DNA from: an uncultured Gammaproteobacteria bacterium
GTDB taxonomy: Bacteria > Patescibacteriota > Microgenomatia > Levybacterales > GWA1-39-11
Reading direction: 5' to 3'
DNA length: 64,000 nt
NCBI GenBank assembly: GCA_964394645.1
Contig: CAYMYC010000001.1
Location: 359,705 to 423,704 of the forward strand
Shown here in pieces: positions 81 through 43,164 of the stretch (positions are counted from its first letter, which is position 1; the number at the start of each line of letters is the position of its first letter). The notes under the pieces were generated by a model. The model made no database searches. It saw only the letters and a list, made by a program, of their open reading frames with translations, and had not been told where the DNA came from. A program made the translations under genes and the position numbers.

Positions 81-722
81 ATGAACCACAAAGCTAACCA
101 TTCGCACATAATAGAGCAAGTTCCTTTGGACTATTACCAAAAGGGAGTAAAGAATAATGCGCTACAAAGAGCTTGGCACACAAGAAAACTTGATATTGTT
201 ATATCCTCAGTTAAAAAATACCCAAAAACAATTTTAGATGTCGGGTGTGCTTCGGGGTGGTTTTTATCTAGGGTCCATAAGCAGTTCCCAAAGGCAAAAT
301 GTGTAGGTGTGGATATATACAAAGACGCGATTTTATACGGTAAAAAAAAGTATCCTCGTATTACTTTTCGTACATCAGATGCACATACGCTTCCGTTCAA
401 GGAAAATACATTTGATTTGATTATATGTACGGAAGTATTAGAGCACGTTGACGATCCGTTAATGGCACTAAAGGAAATAAGAAGAGTTCTTAAGGATGAC
501 GGTCAAGCAATTATAGAACTTGATTCTGGAAGTGCTCTTTTTTCTGTTGTTTGGTTCCTTTGGGGATTAAGTCAGGGAAGGGTATGGAATCATTCACACA
601 TACATTCATTTAATGTTCAAAAGCTCGAACGGATGTTAAAAAAGTGTGGGTTTACAATTGAGAGTAAAAAGCGTTTTAATTTAGGAATGGCAATGGTTTT
701 TTCTGCAAGGAAACATGATTAA
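81..722 (+). CDS. class I SAM-dependent methyltransferase
   Basis: Motif I 'ILDVGCASGWF' (GxGxG), acidic motif II, and 'LIICTEVLEHV' motif III. ATG start. Confidence 0.7.
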   Translation: MNHKANHSHIIEQVPLDYYQKGVKNNALQRAWHTRKLDIVISSVKKYPKTILDVGCASGWFLSRVHKQFPKAKCVGVDIYKDAILYGKKKYPRITFRTSDAHTLPFKENTFDLIICTEVLEHVDDPLMALKEIRRVLKDDGQAIIELDSGSALFSVVWFLWGLSQGRVWNHSHIHSFNVQKLERMLKKCGFTIESKKRFNLGMAMVFSARKHD

Positions 723-2196
723 CTTTGTTAAAGCACATTCCTTCTTGATACTTCTATTTCTGATAACAATTTTCGGTTCATTCCCTCGTGCAATTGAACT
801 TTTATCTGGAAACTACCTATTCGGGTTTGATCAAGGGCTGTTTTATGAAGCAGTATATAAGATTGTAGTATTACATCAGCCGACGCTTATAGGAGCAGAG
901 GTTGGTGGAATAGGTGGATTTTTCCAAGGTCCAGGATGGTATTACCTTTTGTCTTTCTTTTTTATAGCATTCAATGGAGATCCATACGGTGCGATGGTTC
1001 TTATGTTTTTATTAGGTGTTTTATCTATAGTTCTTGCCGGACTATTGTTTTATAAGCAAAATGGTATAGTTTTTGCCTTGATTTTTTCATTTTTAATAGC
1101 TCTTTCTCCCGGAATTATTTCTCAGTCCAGATTTTTTTGGCCACCATTTGTTATTACCCCTCTTACAATTTTATTTATATTTGCAATACAAAGCACTTAT
1201 AGTCACAAAAAATACTATTTACCTTTAGCGTTTTTTTTACTAGGTATTATGACTCACTTCGAGATAGCTACAGGAGGGTCACTGCTACTTTCAACTATAA
1301 TTACTCTTTTTTTCGTACGACCAAAAAACGTTATATCAGCTAGGATAATCGGTATAACCTTTATAGCATTTTTTGTAACTCAACTTCCAATTGTGCTGTT
1401 TGATTTACGTCACAATTTTATTGGAACAAAGGGACTACTGAAGTTTCTAACCATAGGATCATCTACGCATACTACATATTCGTTCTCAAACCATATAGAT
1501 ATGTATAAGGATGTCTTACTGATCGTAACAGGTAATTGGCAGCTTGCCTTACTTTGTTTAGCGCTTATTGTATATAGTACATTAAGGATTTTAAGAAAAA
1601 AAACAAAAACGCAAGAAAAAAAAATCATCCTTTTTATAATTTTGTGCCCTACTGTTCTTTTTATGTTATTCCTTCCATTAAAAGCTACGCTTTGGTCTTG
1701 GTGGTTTCTTGAATTGCCAGTGTTTCTCTGTTTTCTTTTATCGAGTTCATTTATTTATGCCTTTAGACAAAAAAAGATAAAAATTTTTGCTTTTTTAATT
1801 TTATTGTTACTATTTATATCATCTTCGTATCAAACGTACTCTTGGTATAAAAATGACTTTTTAGATTATGGTGGAACTGCAAAAATAAGGGGAAAAATTG
1901 ACGCGATTGACTATATATTTAAAGACGCAAAAAGAAAAAATTTTGGCTTATTAGTTTTTAGCCCCCCTGTATATACTTACCCATATGATTATCTTATAAA
2001 ATGGTACGCAGCAAAAAAATATAATTTTTATCCAAAACAAAAAATAACAAATGAGTTTTACTTATTAATTGAGCCCGATCCTGAAAAGCCATGGTCTTAC
2101 AAGGGGTGGATTGACACTGTGATTAAAAAAGGTAAGGTAGTTAAAACAATAACTCTTCCCAGTGGGTTTATCATCCAAAAAAGAATAACAGAGTAA
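715..2196 (+). CDS. polytopic membrane protein, GT-C-fold-like glycosyltransferase candidate
   Basis: 493 aa with more than 10 predicted TM helices. First loop has an acidic 'FGFDQGLFYEA' motif, like the D/E loop-1 motifs of ArnT/PMT-type GT-C enzymes. Confidence 0.4.
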   Translation: MINFVKAHSFLILLFLITIFGSFPRAIELLSGNYLFGFDQGLFYEAVYKIVVLHQPTLIGAEVGGIGGFFQGPGWYYLLSFFFIAFNGDPYGAMVLMFLLGVLSIVLAGLLFYKQNGIVFALIFSFLIALSPGIISQSRFFWPPFVITPLTILFIFAIQSTYSHKKYYLPLAFFLLGIMTHFEIATGGSLLLSTIITLFFVRPKNVISARIIGITFIAFFVTQLPIVLFDLRHNFIGTKGLLKFLTIGSSTHTTYSFSNHIDMYKDVLLIVTGNWQLALLCLALIVYSTLRILRKKTKTQEKKIILFIILCPTVLFMLFLPLKATLWSWWFLELPVFLCFLLSSSFIYAFRQKKIKIFAFLILLLLFISSSYQTYSWYKNDFLDYGGTAKIRGKIDAIDYIFKDAKRKNFGLLVFSPPVYTYPYDYLIKWYAAKKYNFYPKQKITNEFYLLIEPDPEKPWSYKGWIDTVIKKGKVVKTITLPSGFIIQKRITE

Positions 2197-2198
2197 GG

Positions 2199-2204
2199 TA
2201 TAAT
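2199..2204 (+). promoter_or_regulatory. -10 box TATAAT (within GGTATAAT) 8 nt upstream of ATG 2213
   Basis: The sequence 'AAGGTATAAT' begins at the upstream stop codon. The predicted TSS falls at or next to the start codon. Confidence 0.35.
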
Positions 2205-2212
2205 GACATTAC

Positions 2213-2986
2213 ATGAAAAAAATATCTATTGCACTTGCAACATATAACGAAAAAGATAATATTTCAAGATGTCTAAGATCCGTTCAAGATTGGGCTGATG
2301 AGATAGTGATAGTTGATGGTACCTCAAATGATGGCACTCCCGATATTGCAGAATCATATGGAGCAAGAATAATTACAAAACCAAATAATAAAAATTTTCA
2401 TATAAATAAACAGATAGCAATAGACGAATGCAGAGCACAGTGGATATTGCAACTTGATGCTGATGAAGTAGTGAGTACTGGACTGAGACGTGAGATTGAC
2501 GGGCTTATAGCGTCTAATTCTGAGCAGAATGGATATTGGATACCTAGAAAAAATTGGTTTCTTGGAAGGTTTTTGACTAAGGGCGGACAGTACCCTGACT
2601 ATACTCTTCGTCTATACAGAAATGGTAAAGGTAAGTTACCGCAAAAGGATGTACATGAGCAGGCTATTGTTGAGGGTGAGATTGGATTCTTAAAAGAAGA
2701 TTTGCTTCATTATCCGTATAAGGATTTTAGAGCATATTTGAAGAAGTGGCAGCGTTATAATATTTTTGCTGCTGACATTTTGGCTAAAGAGCTAAAAAAT
2801 AAACCAGCAATTGAGCACATAAAAATATTTTTGCTTGAACTCTTATTTAAACCGCTCTGGTGGTTTGTATGGACGTACGGTAGGCATAAGGGGTTTGTTG
2901 ACGGTTGGCAAGGGTTTGTTTTTTCTCTTTTCTCCTCATTACGATTTCCTGTATCATATATAGAATATTTACGTTTTAAGGTATAA
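2213..2986 (+). CDS. family 2 glycosyltransferase (GT-A fold)
   Basis: N-terminal 'ISIALATYNEKDNI' and DxD-like 'LQLDADEV'. 257 aa. Confidence 0.7.
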   Translation: MKKISIALATYNEKDNISRCLRSVQDWADEIVIVDGTSNDGTPDIAESYGARIITKPNNKNFHINKQIAIDECRAQWILQLDADEVVSTGLRREIDGLIASNSEQNGYWIPRKNWFLGRFLTKGGQYPDYTLRLYRNGKGKLPQKDVHEQAIVEGEIGFLKEDLLHYPYKDFRAYLKKWQRYNIFAADILAKELKNKPAIEHIKIFLLELLFKPLWWFVWTYGRHKGFVDGWQGFVFSLFSSLRFPVSYIEYLRFKV

Positions 2987-2987
2987 T
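2982..2987 (+). promoter_or_regulatory. -10 box TATAAT (within AAGGTATAAT) 6 nt upstream of ATG 2994, overlapping the upstream stop codon
   Basis: Same 10-mer as at 2195..2204. Last T at 2987, ATG at 2994, so the predicted TSS is the A of the ATG. Confidence 0.35.
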
Positions 2988-2993
2988 AAATAT

Positions 2994-3968
2994 ATGAAAG
3001 TACTAGTAGCTGGAGGGGGAGGATATATAGGAAGCTTTATGGTAAAAGCTCTGTGTGATCGTAATGACTCAGTTTTTGTTGTCGACAATTTTTTAAAGGG
3101 TTACTACGAATCTGTTGACAGACGAGCAAAAATCATTGAAGGAAATTTGATGGATGGAGCATTTGTCTCTGAGGCGATAAAAAGTATTGGTGATATTGAT
3201 GTAGTTATAAATTTTGCAGGGTTAATTGAGGTGGGACAGTCAGTGAAAGAACCTGGGCTTTATTTTAATACCAATATTTTAATAGCCTTGAACTTGTTGG
3301 AGAACATAAAAAATACCAAGACTAAATTTATTTTTTCATCAACTGCTGCTGTTTATGGTACCCCTGAGACCGTACCAATTCCAGAAAATCACATAAAAAA
3401 CCCTACAAACCCATATGGGGAAAGTAAGCTTATGATTGAAAAAATTTTACACTGGTATAATAAAACGTATGGACTATCCTTTACAGCATTGCGATATTTT
3501 AACGCTTCAGGCGCAGCGCTTGATGGTAGCATGGGGGAAAAACACAATCCAGAAAGTCATCTAATTCCTGTGGCAATAAAAGCACTTTTAGGCAAAAGCA
3601 CTTTTCATCTTTATGGTGATGACTATAAAACAAATGATGGAACTTGTTTGAGAGACTACATTCATGTCTTAGATTTGATTCAGGCTCATCTTCTCTCAAT
3701 TGATAAGATGAAGGATAATTCATCTGAGATATACAACGTGGGGACTGGAAAAGGGTACACAAATCGTGAGATTATAAATGCAATTGAAAAGATTAGTGGT
3801 GAAAAATTGGAAGTTATTGTAGCTGAGCGTAGACCAGGAGATCCTGATGAGCTGATAGCAGACCCTTCAAAAATAAAGACTGAATTAGGATTTGAGCCAA
3901 AATATTCAGATTTAGAAACAATAATAAAATCCGCTTACACCTGGCATGCGAATGAGCAGAGCAAATGA
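2994..3968 (+). CDS. UDP-hexose 4-epimerase (GalE/WbpP family, SDR)
   Basis: 'MKVLVAGGGGYIGS' Rossmann motif and 'YGESKLMIE' YxxxK catalytic motif. 324 aa, GalE-like length. Confidence 0.7.
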   Translation: MKVLVAGGGGYIGSFMVKALCDRNDSVFVVDNFLKGYYESVDRRAKIIEGNLMDGAFVSEAIKSIGDIDVVINFAGLIEVGQSVKEPGLYFNTNILIALNLLENIKNTKTKFIFSSTAAVYGTPETVPIPENHIKNPTNPYGESKLMIEKILHWYNKTYGLSFTALRYFNASGAALDGSMGEKHNPESHLIPVAIKALLGKSTFHLYGDDYKTNDGTCLRDYIHVLDLIQAHLLSIDKMKDNSSEIYNVGTGKGYTNREIINAIEKISGEKLEVIVAERRPGDPDELIADPSKIKTELGFEPKYSDLETIIKSAYTWHANEQSK

Positions 3969-4474
3969 AAATAAGATTTTTCCTAGCATTATTTTTTCTT
4001 ATTTTATCTCAAACACACTGCTTCGCTAGTTCATCTTACGTTCTTCCTTATCCTGGATATATGCCTGGAAATAAACTATACATATTGGATCATGGGTTTG
4101 ATAAAATACAAAACGTTCTCTCCTTTGGAAGCATCTCGCAGTTCAAGCGGAGTCTTGCATTGTCAGATAAAAACTTGGTTGAGGCAAAGACGTTATTTGA
4201 GTACGGTCAATATAAGCTTGCAATAAATGCTCTGCGTGAATCAGATTTACATTATATTAAGATCTACCCGTTGTTAAAGAAGGCTCAAAAAAAAGGGGTT
4301 GATATTTCTGAAAAAGAAAAATTACTTAAAGAGGCATCAGCCAAGCATAAGGAAATTTTACTTGAATTGCGCACTAAAGTTCCAAGCGAATTTATGTGGG
4401 AAGATGAAGAATCGACTCCGTTAAAACTTGAGATACATAAAAAAATAATAAAGTCAATTACGCTTCGCTCATGA
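3965..4474 (+). CDS. hypothetical secreted protein
   Basis: N-terminal signal-peptide-like hydrophobic segment 'FFLALFFLILSQTHCFASSS'. Lys/Glu-rich C-terminus. ATGA overlap with the upstream gene. Confidence 0.4.
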   Translation: MKIRFFLALFFLILSQTHCFASSSYVLPYPGYMPGNKLYILDHGFDKIQNVLSFGSISQFKRSLALSDKNLVEAKTLFEYGQYKLAINALRESDLHYIKIYPLLKKAQKKGVDISEKEKLLKEASAKHKEILLELRTKVPSEFMWEDEESTPLKLEIHKKIIKSITLRS

Positions 4475-5586
4475 AATATATATACGTTTTTTATGCATTA
4501 TTTCTAATTATTTTTGTCATCTTTAGTTACCTTTTTATTGATCCAAATTTATCTTATTTAAGTACGCTTTTCACAGGGTTTTCTTTTACGAATCGAACAA
4601 TCACGTCTGTATTCTTTGTGTTCATTACTTCATTGTTTTTTGTGTTTTATGTATATTTTTTAAATGCAAAAAGAAGTAGTGCACCTTTGCTTAGGAATTT
4701 AGTTTTAATTTCAGCAGTATGTTTGATATTTTCATATCCTACAGTTACATCATATGACGTATTTAATTATATGACAACGGCGAGAGTTGCGTACTTCTAT
4801 CAAGAGAACCCATATATAGTTATGCCAAATGAATTTATTGGAGATGATATGTTGAGATACACAAGGGCAGCAAACAAAACAGCACTTTACGGACCAGTAT
4901 GGATACTATTAACTTTTATTCCTTATGTATTTGGATTTTCCAGTTTTCTTATCACACTTTTTTTCTTTAAGCTTCTAGTTGGTATTTTTTATTTAGGATT
5001 AGTCTTTCTTGTATTTCGTTTTTCAAAAAAAAACATACAAAAGACTTTATTTTTTGCACTTAACCCTCTTGTATTAATTGAAACCTTTGTAGCTGGTCAC
5101 AATGATGTGGTGATGATGTTTTTTGTATTTGCTTCTCTCTACTGTTTAGCAAAAAAAAATATATTCCTCTCTGTCATATTTCTTATCATGTCCATATGTA
5201 TTAAGTTTTCTACTCTATTTTTAATACCGATATATATACACACAATTTTTAAGATGGTTAAAAAAGATAAAATAGATTTTCAGAGAATATGGAAATATTC
5301 TTTGTTATTAATGGTAATAATATTTTTACTCTCTCCTATAAGGGAGGAGCTGTATCCATGGTATGCAATATGGTTTATACCTTTTGCGGCTCTTATAGAT
5401 GGATATAAAAATTTAAAGAGAATTACAATAGCACTTTGCTTCGGCTTACTTTTGTCTTATGTTCCGTACATGCTTACAGGAGCATACTCATTTAATACAT
5501 ATTTGGCAAAGCACATTATTATTCTTGTTCCAGTTGCGGTAACGGTTGTATTTGAGTTAATCTTTAAAAATGATAAAAATATATAG
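4471..5586 (+). CDS. polytopic membrane protein, GT-C-fold-like candidate
   Basis: 371 aa with about 10 TM helices. Loop motif 'SYDVFNYMTTAR'. ATGA overlap. Confidence 0.4.
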   Translation: MKYIYVFYALFLIIFVIFSYLFIDPNLSYLSTLFTGFSFTNRTITSVFFVFITSLFFVFYVYFLNAKRSSAPLLRNLVLISAVCLIFSYPTVTSYDVFNYMTTARVAYFYQENPYIVMPNEFIGDDMLRYTRAANKTALYGPVWILLTFIPYVFGFSSFLITLFFFKLLVGIFYLGLVFLVFRFSKKNIQKTLFFALNPLVLIETFVAGHNDVVMMFFVFASLYCLAKKNIFLSVIFLIMSICIKFSTLFLIPIYIHTIFKMVKKDKIDFQRIWKYSLLLMVIIFLLSPIREELYPWYAIWFIPFAALIDGYKNLKRITIALCFGLLLSYVPYMLTGAYSFNTYLAKHIIILVPVAVTVVFELIFKNDKNI

Positions 5587-7219
5587 ATACATTTTTCCCC
5601 AATCAGGGTTGCTTTTATCCATTTTAATTGGATTATTTTCTGTCTTTCCATTATTTCAGATAGGATTGCCTCCTACACATGATGGAGAGTACCACGTGAT
5701 AAGATTTTACGAATTTGATAAAACTTTACGAGACGGGAATTGGTATCCACTATGGGCATCAGATTTAAATTATATGTATGGTTCACCTCTTTTTAATTAT
5801 GTCTATCCACTTCCCAATTATTTTGCTTCACTTTTTCATTTTTTTGGCTTAAGTTTTATAGACGCATTCAAGCTAAATTTAATTATTGCAACTGTTATAG
5901 GATCGCTTTCATCATTTTTGTATATGAAAAAAAGGTATGGGGCTTGGAATGGTTTTATGACTTCTGTTTTTTATACATATGCACCTTATCATTTTTTGGA
6001 TATATATATTAGAGGGTCTGTGGGTGAAGTTTGGGCGCTGGCGTTATTCCCATTTGCATTGATTGCAATTGACAGTATACGGAAAAAACCTACTCTTAAG
6101 CACATTTGTTTGGGAGCAATTGCGTATGCACTCATTATTTTTTCTCATAATATCCTGGCAGTAATGTTTACAATTTTTGCACTTTTTTACTGCTTGCTTG
6201 TATTACATAATGCGAAAAGTAAACCGCGTGTTGCAGTTGCATTTTTGTGCTCATTTATAATAGCGCTTTTGGTGGCTAGTGTTTTTATTTTACCTGCGCT
6301 CTTTGAGCAGAGATATGTTGTTGGTTTACAGATTTTTCAGACAACGCGAAATTTTGCTGATCTTTATCAACTACTAATTCCGTCATGGGGTTCAGGGTTT
6401 TCAGGAGGGAGCATGTCTTCGCAAATGTCGTTTCAGATAGGTGCAGCTAATATTTTGGTTTTTATTATTATTCTGATTATTTTTCTTTTTCGGAAAGTAA
6501 AAAAAGAGAAAATATATATAGCTTTTTTTATGATTTGGTTTCTACTATCATGTTTTTTAGTCACCCCGTATTCCGCATTTCTATGGGAGAATATTTCGTT
6601 TATGGATAATTTTCAATTTCCATGGCGCGTTTTAAGCATAGGTGTATTATGTGGTGCAATTCTTGCTGGGTGTATCCCTCTTATATCCAAGTTAAAAGTT
6701 TTATATGTTATACTCATAATCGCATGTATTGGATTCTCTTATTCTTACGCTCGACCGCCTTATCTTTTACCAAGAGTAGACAGTGATCTTTACACAAAAT
6801 CAAATTTTATATATGGTACCAATAGTATTGGAAATTCATTTCAAACTAAATGGTTGCCCCAACAAGAAATATTATTTTCTTCAATAGCAAATGTTCCAGT
6901 AGTATCAGTATTTGAAAATTCGACAGAAAAAAAGTATAGAGTTAGTTTAAAAAAAGAAATGGATGTTGTATTTAACATTTCTTATTTTCCCGGTTGGTTT
7001 GCGCAAGTAGATGAAAAAAAAATAAGAGTAAAGCAGAGTGGGGGAAAGATTGCAGTCACTGTGCCAAAAGGAGATCATGAAATATACTTGAGACTTTCCG
7101 ATACAAAGCTAAGAGGCGTTGCAAAGTTAGTAAGCGTAATTACAATCAGTATTATAATCATCTTTTTCATGTCTTCTGTGGTACAATATTTACATAAGAA
7201 AAATGATAAGAATTTATGA
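5570..7219 (+). CDS. YfhO-like GT-C membrane glycosyltransferase candidate
   Basis: 549 aa. N-terminal multi-TM domain with 'HDGEYHVIRF' loop motif. Extracytoplasmic C-terminal domain with 'YFPGWFAQVDEKK' motif (nt 6983..6997), then a final TM anchor. Same layout in ORFs 20808 and 32071. Confidence 0.45.
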   Translation: MIKIYRYIFPQSGLLLSILIGLFSVFPLFQIGLPPTHDGEYHVIRFYEFDKTLRDGNWYPLWASDLNYMYGSPLFNYVYPLPNYFASLFHFFGLSFIDAFKLNLIIATVIGSLSSFLYMKKRYGAWNGFMTSVFYTYAPYHFLDIYIRGSVGEVWALALFPFALIAIDSIRKKPTLKHICLGAIAYALIIFSHNILAVMFTIFALFYCLLVLHNAKSKPRVAVAFLCSFIIALLVASVFILPALFEQRYVVGLQIFQTTRNFADLYQLLIPSWGSGFSGGSMSSQMSFQIGAANILVFIIILIIFLFRKVKKEKIYIAFFMIWFLLSCFLVTPYSAFLWENISFMDNFQFPWRVLSIGVLCGAILAGCIPLISKLKVLYVILIIACIGFSYSYARPPYLLPRVDSDLYTKSNFIYGTNSIGNSFQTKWLPQQEILFSSIANVPVVSVFENSTEKKYRVSLKKEMDVVFNISYFPGWFAQVDEKKIRVKQSGGKIAVTVPKGDHEIYLRLSDTKLRGVAKLVSVITISIIIIFFMSSVVQYLHKKNDKNL

Positions 7220-8277
7220 GAATTGCTATAGATAACTCCCCCATAACATCATCGCATAGGCTTGCTGATAAGATAAGAGGAACGGGTTTTTACATAAAAA
7301 ATCTAATTGATGCATTAGAGAAATATCATCCTGAACATGAGTACATTTTTTTTCAACAAGGGGAATTTCCACCTGATGCTGATATTTACCACTATCCATA
7401 TTTTGAGCCATTTTTTTTGTCCCTTCCTTCAAGGAAGTATGGTAAGTCAATTGTGACAGTCCACGATGTTATTCCACTTGTGATGCCTGAATTATTCCCA
7501 GTTGGTTTACGTGGAAAAATAAAATTTTTTATTCAAAAAAGAAGACTTTTAAAAATGGATGGTATTATTACAGACTCGCAAGCCTCAAAGGAAGATATTA
7601 TCAAGATCTGCCGCATAAAAAGTGAAAAAATAACAAGTATTCCCTTAGCCCATTCCCCGGTATACAAAAAAACAAAAATAAATTCCGCTGACAGAAAAAA
7701 AATTTTAAGTAAATACCATATTCCAGATGATTTTGTATTATATGTTGGAGACGCAACTCCAAACAAGAACTTAAAAAGGCTTATCAACACCGCTCTAAAT
7801 CTGAAAATTCCCCTTGTTATGGTAGGTGGCGCACTTGTAAGAAATAAAGTCACTACCCATCCATGGAATAGAGACCTTTTATATGTTCAAAAAATGGCAG
7901 AGTCGTATAATAATATTTATCTTTTGGGGTATGTTTCAGATGCTGATTTATCAGTTTTATACAATATATGCAAAGTGTTTGCTTTCCCTTCACTATACGA
8001 AGGGTTTGGGCTACCTGTATTAGAGGCTGCAAGCTCAGGTGCAGCCATTGTTACATCCCACAAAGGAAGTTTGAACGAGGTTATTGGTGATAGTGCTCGG
8101 ATTGTAGACCCGTATAATGAAGATAGTATTACGATTGCTGTAGGTGAGACATTTAATAGTAGGCACTTACGTGTTAAATTAGGAAAAATGGCTTACAAAA
8201 GATCTAAGAATTATGATTGGAAAAAAACTGCTGATGCTACAGTTGACGTATATGAAAAAATTTATACAAGGAAATAA
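7216..8277 (+). CDS. family 4 glycosyltransferase (GT-B fold)
   Basis: C-terminal EX7E region 'FPSLYEGFGLPVLEAASSGAAIVTS'. 'IAIDNS' GT4 N-domain start. Confidence 0.75.
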   Translation: MRIAIDNSPITSSHRLADKIRGTGFYIKNLIDALEKYHPEHEYIFFQQGEFPPDADIYHYPYFEPFFLSLPSRKYGKSIVTVHDVIPLVMPELFPVGLRGKIKFFIQKRRLLKMDGIITDSQASKEDIIKICRIKSEKITSIPLAHSPVYKKTKINSADRKKILSKYHIPDDFVLYVGDATPNKNLKRLINTALNLKIPLVMVGGALVRNKVTTHPWNRDLLYVQKMAESYNNIYLLGYVSDADLSVLYNICKVFAFPSLYEGFGLPVLEAASSGAAIVTSHKGSLNEVIGDSARIVDPYNEDSITIAVGETFNSRHLRVKLGKMAYKRSKNYDWKKTADATVDVYEKIYTRK

Positions 8278-9358: not shown

Positions 9359-9363
9359 TTATA

Positions 9364-11356: not shown

Positions 11357-11358
11357 TA

Positions 11359-15580: not shown

Positions 15581-15596
15581 TCTTGCATGATTCCAA

Positions 15597-29790: not shown

Positions 29791-29792
29791 GA

Positions 29793-30884: not shown

Positions 30885-30897
30885 TCCGCATATCATT

Positions 30898-32067: not shown

Positions 32068-32070
32068 ATA

Positions 32071-34101: not shown

Positions 34102-34334
34102 AAATACAAGACATTATTTTTCTTGTCATTTTTGTAGCGTTGGTTGTAACAAGTTTAAAAAATCCTAGGCGATTTGTGTATGCAGGATTAACCTGTATTA
34201 TTTTATCAATTCCATTATTTTATCTATGGATTTTTTTCACAGCACAACGCCTTCTTTATTATGGATTAGCATTCTTACTAATAGCGGTAGTGATTTTCCT
34301 TTATTTTTTAATCATGAAAGGCTATAATAAATAA
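34098..34334 (+). CDS. small membrane protein (2-3 TM), possible GtrA-like accessory
   Basis: 78 aa, almost entirely hydrophobic helices. ATGA-coupled to the YfhO-like gene. Confidence 0.3.
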   Translation: MKIQDIIFLVIFVALVVTSLKNPRRFVYAGLTCIILSIPLFYLWIFFTAQRLLYYGLAFLLIAVVIFLYFLIMKGYNK

Positions 34335-34335
34335 G

Positions 34336-35355: not shown

Positions 35356-35426
35356 CCTCATACTGAGAAGTACTTTTTAGACGAATGCATATTTTTTTAT
35401 CATAAATTGGGGTAGAATATAATTAC

Positions 35427-35966
35427 ATGAAAATTGGAATTGATATATCTCAGTTAGCATATAAAGATACCGGAGTTGCCAACTATCTTGAAAATTTAGT
35501 AGCAGAGTTAATTGAAAAAGATAGGAAGAATGAATATATTCTGTTTTTCTCATCATTACGTGGCAATATGAATCACACAAAGCTTACTATTCTAGGTAAT
35601 AATTCAAAGGTTACAATAAGAAAGTTTAAATTTCCGCTCTTTTTACTCGATATCATTTGGAATAGAATGCATATTTTCCCTATAGAATGGTTTGTAGGGA
35701 ATATAGATTTGTATATAACATCTGATTGGATTGAGCCACCTGTAAGAAAAGCTAAAAAAGCTACAATCTTGTATGACCTTGTCGTATCTCTCTATCCAAA
35801 TGAAACAGCAAAAAAAATAATTCAAACACAGAAAAGAAAATTATCTTGGGTAAAAAATGAGAGCAGTATAATTTTCTGTATCTCAAGCTCAACTGCAAAA
35901 GATGCTAAAAGAATTCTTGGAATTGATGAAAACAAATTTCGGGTGATATACCCGGGAGTGTCATAA
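35427..35966 (+). CDS. GT4 N-terminal-domain-only protein (truncated glycosyltransferase, possible pseudogene)
   Basis: 'MKIGIDISQLAYKDTGVANYLENL' is a GT4 N-domain start shared with ORFs 7216, 36018 and 45425. The ORF ends at 179 aa, before any EX7E catalytic domain. Confidence 0.4.
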   Translation: MKIGIDISQLAYKDTGVANYLENLVAELIEKDRKNEYILFFSSLRGNMNHTKLTILGNNSKVTIRKFKFPLFLLDIIWNRMHIFPIEWFVGNIDLYITSDWIEPPVRKAKKATILYDLVVSLYPNETAKKIIQTQKRKLSWVKNESSIIFCISSSTAKDAKRILGIDENKFRVIYPGVS

Positions 35967-36017
35967 TAAAAACTGTAACAAGTATAATTACCGTTATTTA
36001 ATCAAGATGAAATTTAT

Positions 36018-37145
36018 ATGAAAATAGGAATAAATGGATACGAAGCAGTGGTTCCTCGTTTTGGTTACACAAGTGAAGGATTTCCTAACCGTGTGGGGAG
36101 CGCTGAGGTTTGCTTCCAGCTTTTATTAGAATTATCAAAACTTGATAAAAAAAATTCATACATTATTTATCTCCCATCCCTTCCAACGAAGGATATGCCT
36201 GAAGAGTCAGCAACCTGGGAATATAGAGTGGTGCCCGCTAAAAGATTTTGGACCCTTATTGCACTTCCTATGGCGCTACGTCGGGATAGACCCGATATAT
36301 TTTTCTCTCCAACGCATTATTCACCTCTTTTTATGCCCATAAAGACGGTACTTACCATACTAGACGTATCTTATAAATATTTCCCTGAAATGTTTACAAA
36401 GAAAGATTTATATAAACTGTCCTGGTGGGGGAAATATTCTGTTAAAAAGTCAAAGAAAATTATAACAATAAGTGAAAGCAGCAAAGATGATATAATAATA
36501 ACATACGGTATAAGCCCGAAAAATGTTAATGTTATCCATCTGGGAATAAAAAATTTACCAACAGTCAGCATGACAAAAGAAGAATTATTTAAAAAATATT
36601 CAGTTAATACGCCTTACATATTATTTGTGGGAACGCTACAGCCAAGAAAAAATGTTAAACGTTTGATACAGGCAATTTCATTGCTAAAAAATAAAGAAGT
36701 TAAGCTTGTTATTATTGGTAAAAAGGGATGGATGTATGAGGAAATTCTTTCAGCTCCTGAAAAATTTGATATCTTAAATCGTGTCACTTTTTTGCATGAA
36801 GTTGTAAATGCTGAGCTTCCTTTTTTCTATAAACACGCGTCACTATTTGTTCTCCCTAGTTTATACGAGGGTTTTGGTTTGCCAATTCTTGAAGCGATGA
36901 AATATAAATGTCCGGTAGTGACAAGTAATGTAAGTAGCTTGCCGGAAGCAGGAGGAGACGCAGCTCTTTATGTTAATCCGGAAGATGTTTCAGAGATTGC
37001 AGAAAAAATTGATGAAGTACTTGGAAACACAAAATTAAGGGATAGAATGATAAAATTAGGAGACGCTCAAGTTAAAAAATTTTCGTGGGATAAAGCAGCT
37101 AGAGAAGTAATAACGGTTTTTGAGGAAACCTTTGGAAAAGAATAG
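36018..37145 (+). CDS. family 4 glycosyltransferase
   Basis: 'PSLYEGFGLPILEAMKYKCPVVTSNVSSLPE'. Confidence 0.75.
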   Translation: MKIGINGYEAVVPRFGYTSEGFPNRVGSAEVCFQLLLELSKLDKKNSYIIYLPSLPTKDMPEESATWEYRVVPAKRFWTLIALPMALRRDRPDIFFSPTHYSPLFMPIKTVLTILDVSYKYFPEMFTKKDLYKLSWWGKYSVKKSKKIITISESSKDDIIITYGISPKNVNVIHLGIKNLPTVSMTKEELFKKYSVNTPYILFVGTLQPRKNVKRLIQAISLLKNKEVKLVIIGKKGWMYEEILSAPEKFDILNRVTFLHEVVNAELPFFYKHASLFVLPSLYEGFGLPILEAMKYKCPVVTSNVSSLPEAGGDAALYVNPEDVSEIAEKIDEVLGNTKLRDRMIKLGDAQVKKFSWDKAAREVITVFEETFGKE

Positions 37146-37192
37146 GATCTTTGTATTTGAAAACGATTGAAATAAAATCGTATTCATGATTT

Positions 37193-37744
37193 ATGAAAAA
37201 AATAGTTAGAAGACTTAAAGCAATAACACTGGAAGCAGACAATATGATATTAAGGTGGGTAGGGCATGTTCCTTCGCACCATTTTAGAAGATTTTGTTAC
37301 AGACTGGAAGGTTTTAAAATCGGACATGGATCAGCAATTCATATGGGGGCAGTATTTTATAATATAAAAAATATAAAAGTTGGTTCGGATACAATTATTG
37401 GAGAAAATGCTGTTTTGGATGGAAGAGATACTCTTAGTATAGGTAGTCATGTAGACATAGCAAGTGAAGTGATGATTTATAATGCTCAGCATGATTTATC
37501 AGATCCATCATTTAAAGCGGTAAATGCTCCTGTTGTAATAGAAGACTATGTTTTTATTGGTCCAAGAGCTATAATTCTTCCTGGTGTAAGTGTGGGCAAG
37601 GGGGCAGTAATTGGTGCGGGAGCAATAGTAACAAAAGATGTTCCAGAGTTTATGATTGTGGGAGGAGTTCCTGCAAAAGTTATAGGAGAGCGAAAATTGA
37701 AAAATCCTTCTTATAGACTTGGTCGCGCTGCTTGGTTTCGATAA
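37193..37744 (+). CDS. hexapeptide-repeat (LbH) O-acetyltransferase
   Basis: '[44 protein letters not shown]'. Confidence 0.7.
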
Positions 37745-37750
37745 ATCTAC

Positions 37751-38611
37751 ATGAATGTTTCAATAATTATTTTAACGTTTAATTCATCAAAATACATAGA
37801 TGAACTTCTTGAGAGCATCGTACACAAATATAAAGGAGAGATCAAAAGTAAAGAGTTGGAAATAATTGTTGCTGATAATTCATCCAAAGATGATACGGTA
37901 AAGAAGGCTAAAACGCATAAAGAAGTAAGAGTAATTAACACTGGAGGAAATTTTGGGTATGCAAGAGGTAATAATATAGCTTCTAATTTAGCATTAGGTG
38001 ATGTTTTGATATTCTTAAATCCTGATACTAAATATTTATCAGGTGACATGTTGAAATTGGCGGATGAATTGAAAAATGAGGAAATTGGTGTTGTGGGCGG
38101 AGAAATAATAAATTTCGAAGGAGAAAGGGAGCTTTCTTGCGGAAAATTTTACAATGCAGTAAATACTTTCCTTCTATCAATGGGTCTTGAAGAGTTATGC
38201 GGCGTGCGTTTCTCGCCTAAAAGAAGACGGAAGGTACAATTTGTTAGTGGGGCTTTTTTTGCTGTAAGAAAGAAACTATTCCATGAGCTAAAAGGATTTG
38301 ATGAGCATTATTTTATGTACATTGAAGATAGTGATTTTTGTTTCAGGGCAAAACTTGCGGGGTATTCAACATTTTTTTCACCTGTTGCTGCAATAAAACA
38401 TGTCGGACAAGGAAGCTCAAATAGGTCGTTTGCTGTCGTAAATATTTATAAAGGGTTGCTATTTTTTAATAAAAAGCATATGGGTAAATTTTCTTATAAA
38501 TTTGTTAAAGCCCTCTTAAAAGTAAAGGCAGCTGTACTTGTAAACTATGGAAAAGTAAGCAATAATCAATATTTAGTCACGACTTATGAAGAAGCTATTA
38601 AAGCGACTTAG
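37751..38611 (+). CDS. family 2 glycosyltransferase
   Basis: 'VSIIILTFNSSKYI', 'IIVADNSSKDDT', 'YIEDSDF'. Confidence 0.7.
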   Translation: MNVSIIILTFNSSKYIDELLESIVHKYKGEIKSKELEIIVADNSSKDDTVKKAKTHKEVRVINTGGNFGYARGNNIASNLALGDVLIFLNPDTKYLSGDMLKLADELKNEEIGVVGGEIINFEGERELSCGKFYNAVNTFLLSMGLEELCGVRFSPKRRRKVQFVSGAFFAVRKKLFHELKGFDEHYFMYIEDSDFCFRAKLAGYSTFFSPVAAIKHVGQGSSNRSFAVVNIYKGLLFFNKKHMGKFSYKFVKALLKVKAAVLVNYGKVSNNQYLVTTYEEAIKAT

Positions 38612-41600
38612 CAATAGAAATAACTTAACACAAAGTAGGTTACTGTTTTTTTTAGTTGCAGTTTCCATTTTGTTTATACCACTTTATCCGAAGCTTCCAG
38701 CAATCGGGGTAAATAATACGTGGGTATACATAAGGTTTGAAGATTTTCTAATTGCATTTACAACTTTTGTCTTTTTGATACAGTTGTTGAGGAGACGGGT
38801 TCATGTAAGTCGGCCCCTTGGGATTCCAATAGTTGCATACTGGATTGCGGGACTTCTATCTCTTTTAATTAGTATAGTATTTATCGCACCTCATCTTGCA
38901 AATTTTTTTCCTCATGTAGCAATCCTTTCTTATTTGAGAAGAATTGAGTATATGGTGCTTTTCTTTATAGGATACGCAGTTATTAAGGAAGAAAAGGATT
39001 TGAGACGCCTATTTTGGGTATTGGCACTGGCTGCAGGAGTAGCTTTTGTATACGGAATAGGTCAAAGGTATTATATAAACGTATGGGCAGCATTTCCAGA
39101 TTTTTTTCAAAAATACTCATTCTGTTTCCCTTCATTTCAGACTACAAATGAAGAGTTTGCAAAAGGTATTCCGCTTTGTTTGCCATCAGACGGGAGAATA
39201 ACTTCACTCTTTGGAGGGCATTATGATCTTTCAGCATATCTTGTGTTGGTAATTCCAATTATTTTTTCAGTTGCGTTTGCAATGAGGAAAAAAATATATC
39301 AAGCTGTTTTGTTACTTTTAGGCACAGGGCTTATATACCTACTTATACTAACTGCTTCTAGGATATCATTCGGTGCATATATTGTAGGGCTTATTTTTGC
39401 ACTCATATTTATCAGAAAAAAAATGTTTATTGTTCCCATACTTATTATTTCTTTATTTTTTCTTGTAACATCAAGTTCAAGCGTATTGCAGCGTTTTACG
39501 CAAACCTTTAGATTTACAAACCTCGTAATAAACAGTCAGGGTCAGGTAGTCGGTGAAGCAGTGAATAAGTTGCCGGAGCAGTTAAAGAAAAAAATTTCAC
39601 ATGAGCCAATTATTGTGGAGGCTCCACCGCCAACTCAAGAGTTACCTACTGGCTCAAGCTACATTGCTCTTCCCGGGAAAACTGAGTCTACGTCTTCAGC
39701 AGTGCTGAAATCATCACCAAAATTATCAAAAGAGGAAAAAAGCAAATATAAATTTGGTGCTGTTGAGATATCAAACGTTCTGGGTAATTTCTTGATTCAG
39801 AGAGCGCTTGTATATGATATTTCTTTCACAACTAGATTTCAGGGAGAATGGCCGAATACTTGGAATGCTTTTATGAGAAACCCAGTGTTTGGGAGTGGAT
39901 ACGCAACTATCACCTTATCCTCAGATAATAGTTTTCTAAGAGCTTTAGGAGAAGTTGGAGTACTGGGCTTTATTACGTTCTTCTCATTTTTTATTATTTG
40001 GTACATTTATATTAAGAATAACTATAAGGAAGCAGACATATTCACAAGAAATTTTGCTCTTGGTCTATCAGCCGGAGTAATTGGTCTTTTTTTGAATGCT
40101 GTGCTGATTGACGTTTTTGAAGCTTCAAAAGTTGCAGAGTCTATGTGGTTGCTTTTAGGTATAGGAGCAGGAGGAATTGCATTACACGCTAAAAATAAAT
40201 TTTCATATGTTCATGAGTTAAAAAATATACTTTCCTCGGGTCTATTTTTGATGATCTATTTATTGATCTTGTTTTTTATATTCTTGGGACCATCGTTTAA
40301 TAATTTTTTTGTTGGAGACGACTTTACCTGGTTAAGGTGGGCTGCACAATCGGACAATACAACTTTAGTTAAAAACTTCTACGATGCTCAGGGATTTTTC
40401 TTGAGGCCAATTGATAAATTATTAATCTTTATGCAATATACACTTTTTAATTTAAAGCCCTTACCCCATCACCTATTCAATCTTTTTTATAATTTTGGGG
40501 TTACTGTAGCAGTATATTTATTACTTTTTAGGGTATTCAAAAAGAGAAGCATTGCGTTTTTAGGAGCATTTATCTTTTCATTTATACCTTCACACTCACA
40601 AAACTTGTTTTGGATGTCTACAATCTCTACTACTGTCTCCAGTCTCTTTGTCTTGCTTGGGCTCCTCTCTTATTTAACAGCTCGTAGATCGAAAAAAATA
40701 GTCTATTATATTTGCGCGTTTGTTCTTTTTCTGTTATCCGTATTCTCATACGAGAATGCAATTATTTTTATTGGTCTTATGGTTGTTTTTGATTTTTTTA
40801 TTGCGGAGAATAATGATAAGCACCATAAGAAGCAAATATTTTTGCCATATCTTTTTGCCTTAGTAATAGTAGGCTTTTACTTACTGGTTCGAATGAACGC
40901 ACATGCAGCTGGTTTTTCCGGAGATTATAATTACAATCTTTTGAAGTTAATTCCTAACTCAATTGGTAATTATCTAGGATATATTGCCTTATTTTTTGGA
41001 AGTGAGTCGACTCTATCCTCATATACATTTTTAAGAAACTTTATGAAGCAGTATGTTCTGGTACTCAGCTTTATTGGATTTATGTTTATAGCATTTGTCG
41101 CAGGTTTTGTTATAGAGCATAAAGAGAAAATATCTATTTCAAGAGGTAAGAAAATATTTATCTTCGGCTTTATTTTTTCAGTTATCGCGCTGCTTCCATA
41201 TTTGCCCTTGGGTAACATTACTCTACGGTATCTTTACCTTCCGTCTTTTGGTTTTGTAGTGATGATACTAGCGGTTTTTGACTTTCTGTTTTCAAAAATC
41301 ACTACAAGGAAATGGTTTATGGTAGCCTATGGTTTAGTAATTATAGTACTCGGGATAACTTTCTATAGTGGTTTAACACGTGCAGAGCAGTATTGGGATC
41401 AAGCTTCAAAAATTACTTATGACACGCTAGTTCGATTCAGACTAGATTTTGATCTTAAAAATAATACGAATCTTTATTTCTATAATGTTCCTATTAAAAA
41501 TGGTGAGGCGTATATATTTCCTGTGGGTCTTCCAGATGCAATCTATTTTGTTAATACTGATAAATCTGTAAAGGTGTATCAAGTTAAGGATAGAAAGACA

Positions 41601-41708
41601 GCTGAAATCTTGAGAGACGCCACTTCTGCAAAAGTACTGCATACAGGGATATTTACTTTTGACAAAAATAAGATGTTAGATCTTATAGAGTACTCGAGTA
41701 AAGAATAA
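38586..41708 (+). CDS. fusion protein: Wzy/O-antigen-ligase-like (Wzy_C) N-terminal domain plus GT-C-like C-terminal membrane domain
   Basis: 1040 aa. The N-terminal half is multi-TM with a periplasmic loop carrying 'RNPVFGSGYATI...DNSFLRALGEVGVLG', a Wzy_C/WaaL-like motif, around nt 39880..39960. The C-terminal half is about 12 more TM helices with a 'VGDDFTWLRW' acidic loop motif. Confidence 0.5.
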   Translation: MKKLLKRLSNRNNLTQSRLLFFLVAVSILFIPLYPKLPAIGVNNTWVYIRFEDFLIAFTTFVFLIQLLRRRVHVSRPLGIPIVAYWIAGLLSLLISIVFIAPHLANFFPHVAILSYLRRIEYMVLFFIGYAVIKEEKDLRRLFWVLALAAGVAFVYGIGQRYYINVWAAFPDFFQKYSFCFPSFQTTNEEFAKGIPLCLPSDGRITSLFGGHYDLSAYLVLVIPIIFSVAFAMRKKIYQAVLLLLGTGLIYLLILTASRISFGAYIVGLIFALIFIRKKMFIVPILIISLFFLVTSSSSVLQRFTQTFRFTNLVINSQGQVVGEAVNKLPEQLKKKISHEPIIVEAPPPTQELPTGSSYIALPGKTESTSSAVLKSSPKLSKEEKSKYKFGAVEISNVLGNFLIQRALVYDISFTTRFQGEWPNTWNAFMRNPVFGSGYATITLSSDNSFLRALGEVGVLGFITFFSFFIIWYIYIKNNYKEADIFTRNFALGLSAGVIGLFLNAVLIDVFEASKVAESMWLLLGIGAGGIALHAKNKFSYVHELKNILSSGLFLMIYLLILFFIFLGPSFNNFFVGDDFTWLRWAAQSDNTTLVKNFYDAQGFFLRPIDKLLIFMQYTLFNLKPLPHHLFNLFYNFGVTVAVYLLLFRVFKKRSIAFLGAFIFSFIPSHSQNLFWMSTISTTVSSLFVLLGLLSYLTARRSKKIVYYICAFVLFLLSVFSYENAIIFIGLMVVFDFFIAENNDKHHKKQIFLPYLFALVIVGFYLLVRMNAHAAGFSGDYNYNLLKLIPNSIGNYLGYIALFFGSESTLSSYTFLRNFMKQYVLVLSFIGFMFIAFVAGFVIEHKEKISISRGKKIFIFGFIFSVIALLPYLPLGNITLRYLYLPSFGFVVMILAVFDFLFSKITTRKWFMVAYGLVIIVLGITFYSGLTRAEQYWDQASKITYDTLVRFRLDFDLKNNTNLYFYNVPIKNGEAYIFPVGLPDAIYFVNTDKSVKVYQVKDRKTAEILRDATSAKVLHTGIFTFDKNKMLDLIEYSSKE

Positions 41709-41709
41709 T

Positions 41710-43164
41710 ATGATAAAAAAAATAGAACTTGCAATTTTTGTATTTATACTTATTCTGGCATTTGTGTTAAGGTTGTACCGTTTTGATAATCCCATTGGTG
41801 ACTGGCATGCGTTCCGGCAAGCAGATACCTCAGCCGTTGCGAAAGTCTATGTTTCAAATGGAATAAACCTTTTATCACCAAAATATTTTGACATATCAAA
41901 TATTCAATCTGGGAAAGATAACCCTGAGGGGTATAGATTTGTTGAATTTCCCGTAATGAGTGCTATTCAGGCAAGTACATTCATGTATATAGGGGTATTG
42001 AGTCTTGAGGAGTGGGGAAGACTGATTACTATCTTGTCGTCCTTGGGAAGTCTAACCTTTATATATTTACTTGTTCGTAGGCACCTTGATCCTGTTTCTG
42101 GCTTGTTTTCAGCCTTTTTTTATGCCATTCTTCCTTATTCAATTTTTTATGGACGTGTGATACTTCCAGATCCCGCTTGCGCTTGTGCTATTCTTGGCGG
42201 GATATATTTTTTTGATGTTGCAATGTCATATAAAAAACATAAGATGCTTTTGCTGAATATATTTTTCTGGCTTGCTCTTGTTTTTACAGCTATATCATTT
42301 TTATTAAAGCCTTTTGCGTTATTTTTTACCTTACCTATGTTTATTCTTGCATGGAAGAGGTACGGTTTTAGGGTTTTTCTTCGATGGGAGTTGTATATCT
42401 TTGCTTTTTTATCAATTCTTCCGCTTGTGCTTTGGAGGATTTGGATAACTCAACATCCCGAAGGGATACCAGTATCAAACTGGTTATTTAATGAAGGTGG
42501 CATACGATTTACCGGTGCGTTTTTTCACTGGATATTAGCAGAAAGAGTAGCAAAGCTTATACTTGGGTACTTCGGGATTGTTCTTTTATTGTTAGGTCTA
42601 TTTAAAAGAAATGAAAAAAACTATTTGTTTTTCTTGTCATTCTTAGTTTCATCAATTATCTATGTAATTGTAATCGCACGAGGAAATGTTCAGCATGACT
42701 ATTATCAAATATTAATATTGCCTACAATATGTATTTTCCTAGGAAGGGGAGCGACCTATTTACTGTCCATTCCCGTGAAGACAGGTGAGAATATTGGGAT
42801 AAACACATTCATTTCATTATTTACGCTCACAGTAATAATTATCCTTTCTTTTATGCTCTCCTGGTATCATGTTCGTGATTATTTTAATATTAATAACAGG
42901 GGGCTAATTAATGCTGGAATTGTTGCTGATAAGCTGCTGCCGAAAAATGCAAAAGTAATAGCGGCAAACGATGGAGACACTTCATTTTTGTATTATATAA
43001 ATAGAAAAGGGTGGCCTGCATATGAAAAAAGCGTAGAGGGCTTGCAGGAGTTAGGTGCAACTCACATAGTCGTTCCAAGCCCAACTGAAAATGACATTAA
43101 AGGTTTAGGAACGATTTACAAGCGTTTGTATACGTCGAAAGATGTATTGATTCTTAAATTATGA
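41710..43164 (+). CDS. polytopic membrane protein, GT-C-fold-like candidate
   Basis: 484 aa, about 11 TM helices. Loop 'WHAFRQADTSAVAKVY'. C-terminal soluble domain. Confidence 0.4.
   Translation: MIKKIELAIFVFILILAFVLRLYRFDNPIGDWHAFRQADTSAVAKVYVSNGINLLSPKYFDISNIQSGKDNPEGYRFVEFPVMSAIQASTFMYIGVLSLEEWGRLITILSSLGSLTFIYLLVRRHLDPVSGLFSAFFYAILPYSIFYGRVILPDPACACAILGGIYFFDVAMSYKKHKMLLLNIFFWLALVFTAISFLLKPFALFFTLPMFILAWKRYGFRVFLRWELYIFAFLSILPLVLWRIWITQHPEGIPVSNWLFNEGGIRFTGAFFHWILAERVAKLILGYFGIVLLLLGLFKRNEKNYLFFLSFLVSSIIYVIVIARGNVQHDYYQILILPTICIFLGRGATYLLSIPVKTGENIGINTFISLFTLTVIIILSFMLSWYHVRDYFNINNRGLINAGIVADKLLPKNAKVIAANDGDTSFLYYINRKGWPAYEKSVEGLQELGATHIVVPSPTENDIKGLGTIYKRLYTSKDVLILKL

Follow-up and report, generated by a model that had tools for sequence, protein, structure and literature searches.

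Between positions 715 and 43164, the DNA analysed here, a 64,000-nucleotide stretch of contig CAYMYC010000001.1 (assembly GCA_964394645.1) that we refer to as the window, encodes one large polytopic membrane protein after another. This raises the question of whether these proteins are GT-C-type glycosyltransferases, as had been proposed from the letters and open reading frames (ORFs) alone (the sequence-only reading), or permeases, and what a bacterium would build with so many of them. That reading counted about ten polytopic GT-C-like proteins. All of the ORFs it listed exist and are polytopic, and our own count of GT-C domains is also ten: o715, o4471, o5570, o8252, o12461, o20808, o25073, o32071, the C-terminal half of o38586 (o38586C) and o41710. 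Their genes take up 17.2 kb of the 42.5 kb region (40%). Family profiles and fold models suggest that the ten are indeed GT-C-type glycosyltransferases rather than permeases and that the GT-C reading is largely right. The region is part of a longer locus that spans positions 81 to about 51500 on one strand. The organism is a Levybacteria bacterium (Patescibacteria, Microgenomates), in which the region probably forms the core of a locus for cell-surface glycans that measures at least 60 kb.

Families, folds and conserved loop-1 acids of the GT-C domains

The listed membrane ORFs contain 7-18 hydrophobic segments each (Kyte-Doolittle estimate), and hydropathy gave 7-13 segments per GT-C domain in all ten. 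Most N-termini harbour Lys or Arg, which fits an N-in topology with loop 1 outside. The GT-C superfamily is defined by 7-13 transmembrane (TM) helices (PMC11127046). The Pfam gathering cut-off was passed by three of the proteins. The first, o5570 (549 aa; 5570..7219, plus strand, like all ten genes), is a GT-C of the YfhO family, in which an N-terminal TM bundle is followed by an external domain and one last TM helix (PF09586 YfhO, 44.1 bits at a cut-off of 28.5; PTPS_related, 33.9 bits). The other two are PMT_2 enzymes (PF13231, cut-off 26.1 bits), namely o12461 (443 aa; 12461..13792) with 36.1 bits and o41710 (484 aa; 41710..43164) with 29.1 bits. The PMT_2 cut-off was missed by o715 and o25073, which gave no match, and by u7672, an upstream gene family (18.9-23.6 bits).

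Two proteins point to other GT-C lineages. An MptA/MptB-like (GT87-related) GT-C is encoded by o4471 (371 aa; 4471..5586), which has a precomputed match to PF26314 (MptA_B_family) and reaches TIGR03459 at 1.4e-6, below the cut-off. The product of o8252 (8252..9358, in an ORF open from 8213) resembles PIG-V (GT76) and GT87 enzymes: its relatives match PF04188 Mannosyl_trans2 (best 8.8e-12) and GT87 (best 4.4e-5), and the window protein on its own reaches GT87 at E 0.08 only. The start codons at 8252 and 25073, as used by the sequence-only reading, were preferred over the longest ORFs (from 8213 and 24989), supported by homologue alignments and by the overlap with a minus-strand gene.

The profile evidence for o715, o20808 and o25073 is more indirect, as none of these has a Pfam match. 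The first of them, o715 (493 aa; 715..2196), is a divergent member of the PMT_2/ArnT clan of GT-Cs, and its soluble C-terminal domain is conserved. It has 665 matches in Patescibacteria, and among the 120 listed about one third carry PF13231 and some are named ArnT-like. By hhalign, it is linked at 100% to the upstream PMT_2-like family u6161 and at 96% to u2832; the latter is also linked to o12461 (96.7%), and u6161 to o5570 (96.9%). For o25073 (558 aa; 25073..26749), a GT-C of a small family that has no Pfam model, we found 55 homologues, essentially all lacking Pfam annotation, and for o20808 (729 aa; 20808..22997) 67 homologues, none with a Pfam domain. The few source-named homologues in both families are Patescibacteria. 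The product of o32071 (676 aa; 32071..34101) is a homologue of o20808 (hhalign 99.9%, E 2.8e-32, 630 columns), and both are AftD/YfhO-like. The o32071 protein, which has 2206 cluster representatives, matches PF11847 (GT-C_AftD) at E 4e-4, below the cut-off, and 2 of 32 family members reach AftD or YfhO at E <0.01. Both o20808 and o32071 stay below the YfhO cut-off (PF09586); of the trio that had been called YfhO-like, o5570 is a member and these two are remote relatives. When the proteins lacking a Pfam match were rescanned at Pfam E <=10 and NCBIfam E <=1, sub-threshold hints were all that appeared.

Profile-to-profile comparison joined o715, o5570, o12461, o20808, o25073, o32071, o38586C and the upstream genes in one hhalign network, with o4471 and o8252 as a separate, weaker pair. 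The direct comparison of o25073 with o715 gave a probability of only 11%, and the link between them emerges through intermediate upstream families. The idea of a recent paralogue expansion was dropped, as pairwise blastp and phmmer similarity was almost never significant in the all-vs-all comparison. The term 'swarm', used before for these proteins, does not hold in the sense of paralogues, since profiles were needed to relate most of them. Judged from these profiles, the region contains at least five distant GT-C lineages that are not recent paralogues.

Fold comparison carried the assignment of the o25073 and o20808 families to the GT-C fold, as the sequence-profile searches of the PDB gave nothing. 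These searches, performed with the o715, o25073, o8252, o38586N (the N-terminal half of o38586), o32071 and o20808 families, returned no relevant match, and neither did o38586N as a single sequence. Alignment-based AlphaFold models reached a pLDDT of 90 and a pTM of 0.90 for o25073, and a pLDDT of 86 and a pTM of 0.88 for o20808; DSSP described both as helical bundles. When both models were compared to the PDB by Foldseek, the matches at probability 1.00 were all GT-C enzymes (STT3, ArnT, AglB, PglB, DPY19, Pmt4, ALG12, AftB and AftD). The top matches of o20808 were AftD (6w98, 3e-7), STT3, PglB and ArnT, all at probability 1.00. Transporters reached a probability of at most 0.3 in both searches, with a TM-score of about 0.1. 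The verification by AlphaFold that had been suggested therefore succeeded for the two proteins that were modelled, and the alternative assignment as permeases or transporters was not seen. The resemblance of o20808 to STT3 is one of fold only: neither WW[DE] nor W[WF]D[YF]G, motifs of the WWDxG type found in oligosaccharyltransferases (OST), occurs in o5570, o20808 or o32071. Overall, these proteins resemble the PMT_2 (PF13231)/ArnT-PMT clan, YfhO (PF09586) and GT-C_AftD (PF11847) in having the same fold, a loop-1 Asp or Glu and 9-13 TM helices, in contrast to which o20808 and o25073 have no Pfam match.

The motifs quoted in the sequence-only reading (FDEYAW, QQDEW and VGDDF) are present, each just after TM1, and the acidic loop-1 residues, whose absence it had named as speaking against GT-C enzymes, were kept in every family after alignment with homologues. 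They were invariant in o715, o25073, o20808 and o32071 (alignments of 26-32 sequences, down to 21-42% identity), and also in o8252, o12461, o38586 and o41710, for which the sets are shallower (3-8 sequences). In o4471 and o5570, they were at least 90% conserved in local alignments. For o715, E28, D39, Q40 and G41 were invariant, D39 being the acid, and for o20808, G36, G37, D38 and D39, with D38/D39 as acids. The acids of o25073 are D34/E35 (QQDEW at aa 32), and o32071 harbours an invariant D34 in a GGD motif. In the shallower sets, o12461 retained F40, D41 and E42 in 3 homologues (FDEYAW at aa 40), o41710 retained D31, W32, H33 and D39 in 5 homologues (acids D31/D39), and o8252 has an invariant D64 together with the invariant family motif ANFDG..Y..IA..GY..QAFFP. 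Finally, D24 after TM1 was at least 90% conserved in 30 homologues of o4471, as were H37 and D38 in 46 homologues of o5570, with D38 as the acid.

The tenth domain is part of a fusion. The C-terminal half of o38586 (40218..41708) is a GT-C domain of the o25073 type (blastp 1.5e-5; hhalign 98.3%), and its loop 1 contains the two Asp of VGDDF (motif at aa 576, Asp at aa 578-579). Within the motif FV(G/A)DDF(T/S/V)WL, both Asp were invariant in the 7 homologues that cover this half. The N-terminal half (38586..40217) is probably a domain of the Wzy_C family (O-antigen ligase/polymerase-like). Against PF04932, the window protein reaches 19 bits, below the cut-off of 31.7, and 8 of 8 homologues match the family (best 2.8e-8). 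Its invariant residues are R50, E52, D53, H212, R259, R417, D447 and N448. Four metagenome relatives (L073, L074, L075 and L079) have the full-length fusion, with an identity of 44-46%. The order GT2, fusion, PMT_2, GT4 was constant in the fusion-bearing relatives, in which o41710 always directly follows the fusion gene. The C-terminal motif of the Wzy_C half reads GSGY..I.L..DN..LRALGE.G..G (aa 445-452), with D447 invariant in 8 of 8 homologues, at a position which we take to be a conserved His in O-antigen ligases. From its sequence, the domain may be a polymerase or a ligase.

Conservation of the GT-C island across Microgenomates

The dense GT-C island is a conserved trait of Microgenomates and not unique to this genome, and it is partly syntenic in most of the sampled relatives. 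The 9.3 kb that immediately precede the window were read from a strain whose DNA is 98.6% identical. They contain a further five PMT_2 genes in tandem, which share 25-32% identity and have precomputed PMT_2 matches, and one PMT_2-like gene on the other strand. This brings the total to at least 16 GT-C(A) domains and one Wzy_C domain in about 52 kb. In the near-identical strain, the upstream PMT_2-like gene on the minus strand (L001:7672-9129) is called 46 aa shorter than its orthologue at L007:7678-9273 (minus strand) and lacks TM1 and the loop-1 motif GGDSGRD, which may reflect a truncation or another start.

A scan of species-representative genomes with an o715 profile yielded 63 loci. In the 31 loci with full 10-kb flanks, the 21 kb around the o715 orthologue contain on average 9.2 and at most 12 polytopic ORFs (at least 300 aa and at least 7 predicted TM helices). 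The recurring members of the island are the PMT_2 array, o715 and the YfhO-like, MptA/B-like, PIG-V-like and Wzx genes. Two further modules recur in relatives, one composed of a hexapeptide transferase, o20808 and o25073, the other of a GT2 gene, the fusion, a PMT_2 gene and a GT4 gene. All properly named relatives belong to Levy-, Gottesman-, Roizman- or Woesebacteria or to Patescibacteria, the nearest being a Candidatus Levyibacteriota metagenome-assembled genome (MAG) with 83% identity. Many island-bearing MAG records of species representatives (L008, L009, L013-L016 and others) are titled 'uncultured Gammaproteobacteria bacterium' despite the Microgenomates character of their gene content and of their closest relatives, probably a placeholder taxonomy.

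Exact-sequence look-ups in public assemblies placed o715 on at least 26 blocks, whereas o22994 was present on 6 contigs and o38586 on 1, all of them short and adding no annotation. The central part (20808-41708) may be strain-variable, like the serotype-determining parts of O-antigen loci, as is hinted by its presence at 100% protein identity on far fewer contigs than o715.

Glycan assembly genes and the source of sugar donors

The glycan locus (81..51508, plus strand) forms a single operon-like block of 45 tightly packed plus-strand ORFs. Among the 44 ORF junctions, 19 are overlapping and 34 lie at <=20 nt; the G+C content of the window is about 33%. Besides the GT-C genes, Pfam and NCBIfam assigned about ten GT4 and six GT2 glycosyltransferases, seven NAD-dependent epimerases/dehydratases, one DegT aminotransferase, one sugar nucleotidyltransferase, four hexapeptide acyltransferases and seven methyltransferases, six of which are on the plus strand. 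A gene at 48851..49486 (plus strand) encodes a small WbaP-type polyprenyl-phosphate phosphoglycosyltransferase of the initiating kind (PF02397 Bac_transf, 1.6e-61; TIGR03025, 9e-75). Another, o9364 (9364..10623, plus strand), encodes a Wzx-type flippase (PF01943 Polysacc_synt, 48.8 bits at a cut-off of 28.2), which is polytopic and not a GT-C; it showed no hhalign link to any GT-C family.

Taken together, these genes probably serve a pathway that starts in the cytoplasm and ends outside the membrane. Tailoring enzymes (epimerases, aminotransferase, acyltransferases and methyltransferases) would modify sugar nucleotides, and the small WbaP-type enzyme and the soluble GT4 and GT2 enzymes would then build a polyprenyl-diphosphate-linked unit. 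In the order we propose, the Wzx protein would flip this unit across the membrane and the Wzy_C domain of o38586 would polymerise or ligate it. On the outer face of the membrane, the ten GT-Cs of the window and at least six encoded upstream would transfer single sugars from presumed polyprenyl-phosphate-sugar donors to an acceptor that may be the growing glycan or a surface protein. The conserved Asp or Glu after TM1 would be the catalytic or metal-binding residue, and all enzymes would contribute to one product. In favour of this pathway, the genes for Bac_transf, Wzx, Wzy_C, GT4/GT2 and the enzymes that modify sugars are closely packed in one block on a single strand. How GT-C enzymes glycosylate outside the cytoplasm with the help of lipid-linked donors has been described in general terms (PMC8035078, PMC11127046), and we based the mechanistic analogy on multi-component transmembrane glycosylation systems and mycobacterial GT-Cs (PMC8035078, PMC5836110, PMC11127046, PMC12041525). 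The sequence-only reading had called the pathway periplasmic. If these bacteria have a single membrane, as is expected, that term is a misnomer.

Several observations weigh against this pathway. The six GT2 genes (2213, 10595, 13782, 28257, 37751 and 44362) were counted correctly in the sequence-only reading, which saw in them possible lipid-phosphate-sugar synthases. That role was not borne out: none of the six proteins has a predicted TM helix, their NCBIfam matches are generic, with ArnC, DPMS and PpgS far below the cut-off, and no recognisable polyprenyl-phosphate-sugar synthase of the GtrB/CsbB/ArnC type was found in the locus. A GtrA-like flippase gene is also missing from it, the sole small multi-TM ORF being that at 34098-34334. 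Since the GT2 proteins have no TM helix, no GtrA-type gene is present and the NCBIfam matches are generic, a canonical lipid-phosphate-sugar route is not visible in the sequence of this locus. In addition, the Pfam search of ORFs of at least 150 aa between 81 and 55795 found no chain-length regulator (Wzz/PCP), and no ligase-type attachment enzyme was found. The Wzy_C match of the window protein lies below the Pfam cut-off, with an Asp where we presume a His to be usual in the C-terminal motif. Further points are that modelled structures cover two of the ten proteins (o25073 and o20808), that five of the conservation sets are shallow (3-8 sequences), that the nearest solved relatives of the GT2 enzyme o2213 are protein or peptide glycosyltransferases, and that the GT-Cs may act on acceptors other than the Wzx/Wzy product.

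With its 257 aa, o2213 (2213..2986, plus strand) is the most conserved soluble gene of the island. An orthologue was present in 28 of the 31 full loci. In 27 of these, it follows the o715 orthologue at a distance of 1.5-5 kb downstream, and in the other one it lies upstream of it by about 9 kb. Among solved structures, the protein is closest to GmaR (4.8e-25) and SunS, and less similar to DPMS and GtrB, which its N-terminal 100 aa match weakly. A 760-aa protein encoded at L065:13123-15405 has an o2213 orthologue at residues 4-255, followed by a PMT_2-like GT-C of the u7672 family. This fusion is a Rosetta-stone link of the conserved GT2 to a GT-C, seen in a single instance for which an assembly error is possible. 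Because of its presence in 28 of 31 islands and this fusion, o2213 is the best candidate, as yet unproven, for the donor synthase.

Other genes of the locus may be connected to the GT-C enzymes. A plus-strand ORF at 34098..34334 (78 aa, three predicted TM helices) occupies the space that separates o32071 from the epimerase gene after it. In a Gottesmanbacteria-type relative, a homologue of 73 aa (L083:21946-22167) is found at the same place upstream of an epimerase. The ORF matched no Pfam family at E <=1 except for a chance-level match at 0.09, GacJ's own family not being compared specifically. As a speculation, it could encode a GacJ-like helper or a small flippase.

Two genes lie between the families of o20808 and o25073. 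The first, o22994 (22994..24052, plus strand; 352 aa), encodes one TM helix, a soluble domain and five C-terminal TM helices; it belongs to no family, with neither a Pfam or NCBIfam match nor an hhalign link, and is probably not a GT-C. The second is a GDSL/SGNH hydrolase or acyltransferase-like gene on the minus strand (24042-25016; PF13472 at 2.6e-14). At the position of o22994 beside the o20808 homologue, L082 has a similar-sized protein with no Pfam match and L083 a 1344-aa GDSL-domain protein (L083:12181-16215), as compared by position and not by sequence. The location of the GDSL gene and o22994 between two GT-C families suggests that an esterase or O-acyl transfer reaction outside the cytoplasm is linked to these GT-Cs. 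The other of the two minus-strand genes in the locus encodes the seventh methyltransferase (27497-28156).

A DUF5667 protein with a signal-peptide-like N-terminus (3965-4474) was kept inside the island in 21 of 31 relatives, and a 650-aa DUF4012 protein (49556-51508) closes the locus. Both belong to uncharacterised families and may be exported parts of the same surface structure. From 51505, the locus is followed by genes of the housekeeping type (RecO, a class II aminoacyl-tRNA synthetase and MraW), and a scan of the window found no tRNA genes.

Alternative explanations, known systems and meaning

Three other explanations were weighed against the proposed pathway. In one of them, the polytopic proteins would be transporters, permeases or Wzy-type polymerases and not GT-C(A) enzymes. 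Several proteins do lack a Pfam match of their own, and the locus does encode a probable Wzy_C domain (o38586N) and a Wzx transporter (o9364). Against this stand the fold searches described above, the hhalign ties of these families to PMT_2 and YfhO, and the conserved loop-1 acids. Judged from the models, permeases and transporters are excluded for o25073 and o20808 and unlikely for the other eight, and for the set as a whole we regard this explanation as extremely improbable. Another explanation is protein glycosylation. As PMT-like O-glycosyltransferases or OST-like enzymes, most of the GT-Cs could add sugars to emerging secreted proteins such as S-layer proteins or pilins instead of branching a polysaccharide. 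In favour of this, PMT_2 is the most frequent family of the locus, o20808 aligns with STT3 and PglB, and the solved relatives of o2213, GmaR and SunS, glycosylate flagellin or peptides. However, WWDxG-type motifs are missing from o5570, o20808 and o32071, a GT-C fold alone is silent on the acceptor, and the locus holds a full set of genes for the assembly and flipping of a lipid-linked oligosaccharide as well as a probable Wzy_C domain. We consider it unlikely that protein glycosylation is the main role, noting that it and the proposed pathway are not mutually exclusive.

Alternatively, the GT-Cs themselves could polymerise a lipoglycan or wall polysaccharide from polyprenyl-phosphate sugars, as in Mycobacterium, with the Wzx/Wzy genes making a primer or a separate product. 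The families mirror the mycobacterial set, with an MptA/B-like o4471, a GT87/PIG-V-like o8252, AftD-like o20808 and o32071 and many PMT_2 proteins. Moreover, at least 16 GT-Cs are far above what side-chain decoration needs in known three-component systems (PMC8035078, PMC11127046). On the other hand, the likeness is at family level only, and the window contains neither a decaprenyl-phosphoribose-type donor pathway (UbiA-like DPPRS, DprE1/2) nor a clear Ppm1-like synthase, which leaves this explanation very unlikely in our judgement. We favour the pathway of cytoplasmic assembly, Wzx flipping, polymerisation or ligation by the Wzy_C domain and sugar addition outside by GT-Cs.

The locus combines features of several known systems. 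With the three-component systems GtrA/GtrB/GtrC of Shigella and Salmonella, CsbB/GtcA/YfhO of Bacillus and Listeria and GacI/J/K/L of Streptococcus (PMC8035078, PMC5836110, PMC11127046), it shares an outer-face GT-C beside a glycan-assembly locus and a YfhO-family member. A Wzx-type flippase is available, as with GacK, and, in the way that GacI is paired with GacJ, a soluble GT2 could be assisted by a small membrane protein. Those systems have 1-3 GT-Cs per locus, whereas here the window encodes ten and the stretch of about 52 kb at least 16, and neither a membrane-anchored GT2 synthase nor GtrA is present. The many GT-C lineages (GT87/MptA-like, AftD-like and PMT-like) are reminiscent of the mycobacterial and corynebacterial set (PimE, MptA/B/C, EmbA-C, AftA-D and Pmt), whose lineages cooperate outside the membrane using polyprenyl-phosphate sugars, and AftD is the best structural match of o20808. 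In mycobacteria, GT-C genes are for the most part dispersed, and the emb-aft region has no more than about five; the genes studied here, in contrast, form one contiguous conserved island, and no decaprenyl-phosphoarabinose (DPA) or polyprenyl-phosphomannose (PPM) donor pathway was recognised in it. As in Wzx/Wzy O-antigen and capsule loci, an initiating phosphoglycosyltransferase, GT4 and GT2 enzymes, Wzx, a probable Wzy_C-family protein and sugar-nucleotide tailoring enzymes are encoded in one block. Unlike in those loci, Wzy_C is fused to a GT-C, a fusion kept in at least four relatives, Wzz/PCP is missing, and the number of GT-Cs is above that of any described locus of that type found in the literature.

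GT-C enzymes and extracytoplasmic glycosylation are well known. Apparently new are the dense, conserved Microgenomates island, two GT-C families that have neither a Pfam model nor a sequence-level PDB relative, and the conserved Wzy_C-GT-C fusion, for which we found no description. The sequence-only reading could likewise recall no locus with so many GT-Cs. Our literature search found no description of a dense GT-C island in Microgenomates, which, as its coverage was incomplete, is an absence of evidence only. We tentatively suggest that Microgenomates (Levy-, Gottesman-, Roizman- and Woesebacteria) possess a conserved 'GT-C island', possibly the densest in any genome, with at least two Pfam-less families so far seen only in Patescibacteria-type sequences and with a Wzy_C-GT-C fusion. 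The catalogue of GT-C enzymes would gain two unmodelled families and this fusion.

In bacteria of the candidate phyla radiation, whose genomes measure about 1 Mb, many biosynthetic pathways are missing. To our knowledge, their cell-surface composition, host attachment and phage resistance are largely unknown. Here, about 5% of a genome of about 1.2 Mb, a size judged from the contigs of relatives, is spent on one glycan locus, in which GT-Cs account for 40% of the central 42 kb. The locus raises the question of where lipid-phosphate-sugar donors come from when no GtrB/GtrA-type genes are present in it. If the tentative suggestion of such a conserved GT-C island is true, it would mean that a large share of the surface glycan of these ultra-small, genome-reduced bacteria is put together on the outer side of the membrane, as in mycobacteria and in the lumen of the endoplasmic reticulum, from lipid-linked sugars supplied by a donor route that does without the canonical GtrB/GtrA pair. 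Being conserved and easy to recognise, the island is a definite target for heterologous expression and for the analysis of glycans in those few relatives that are in culture.

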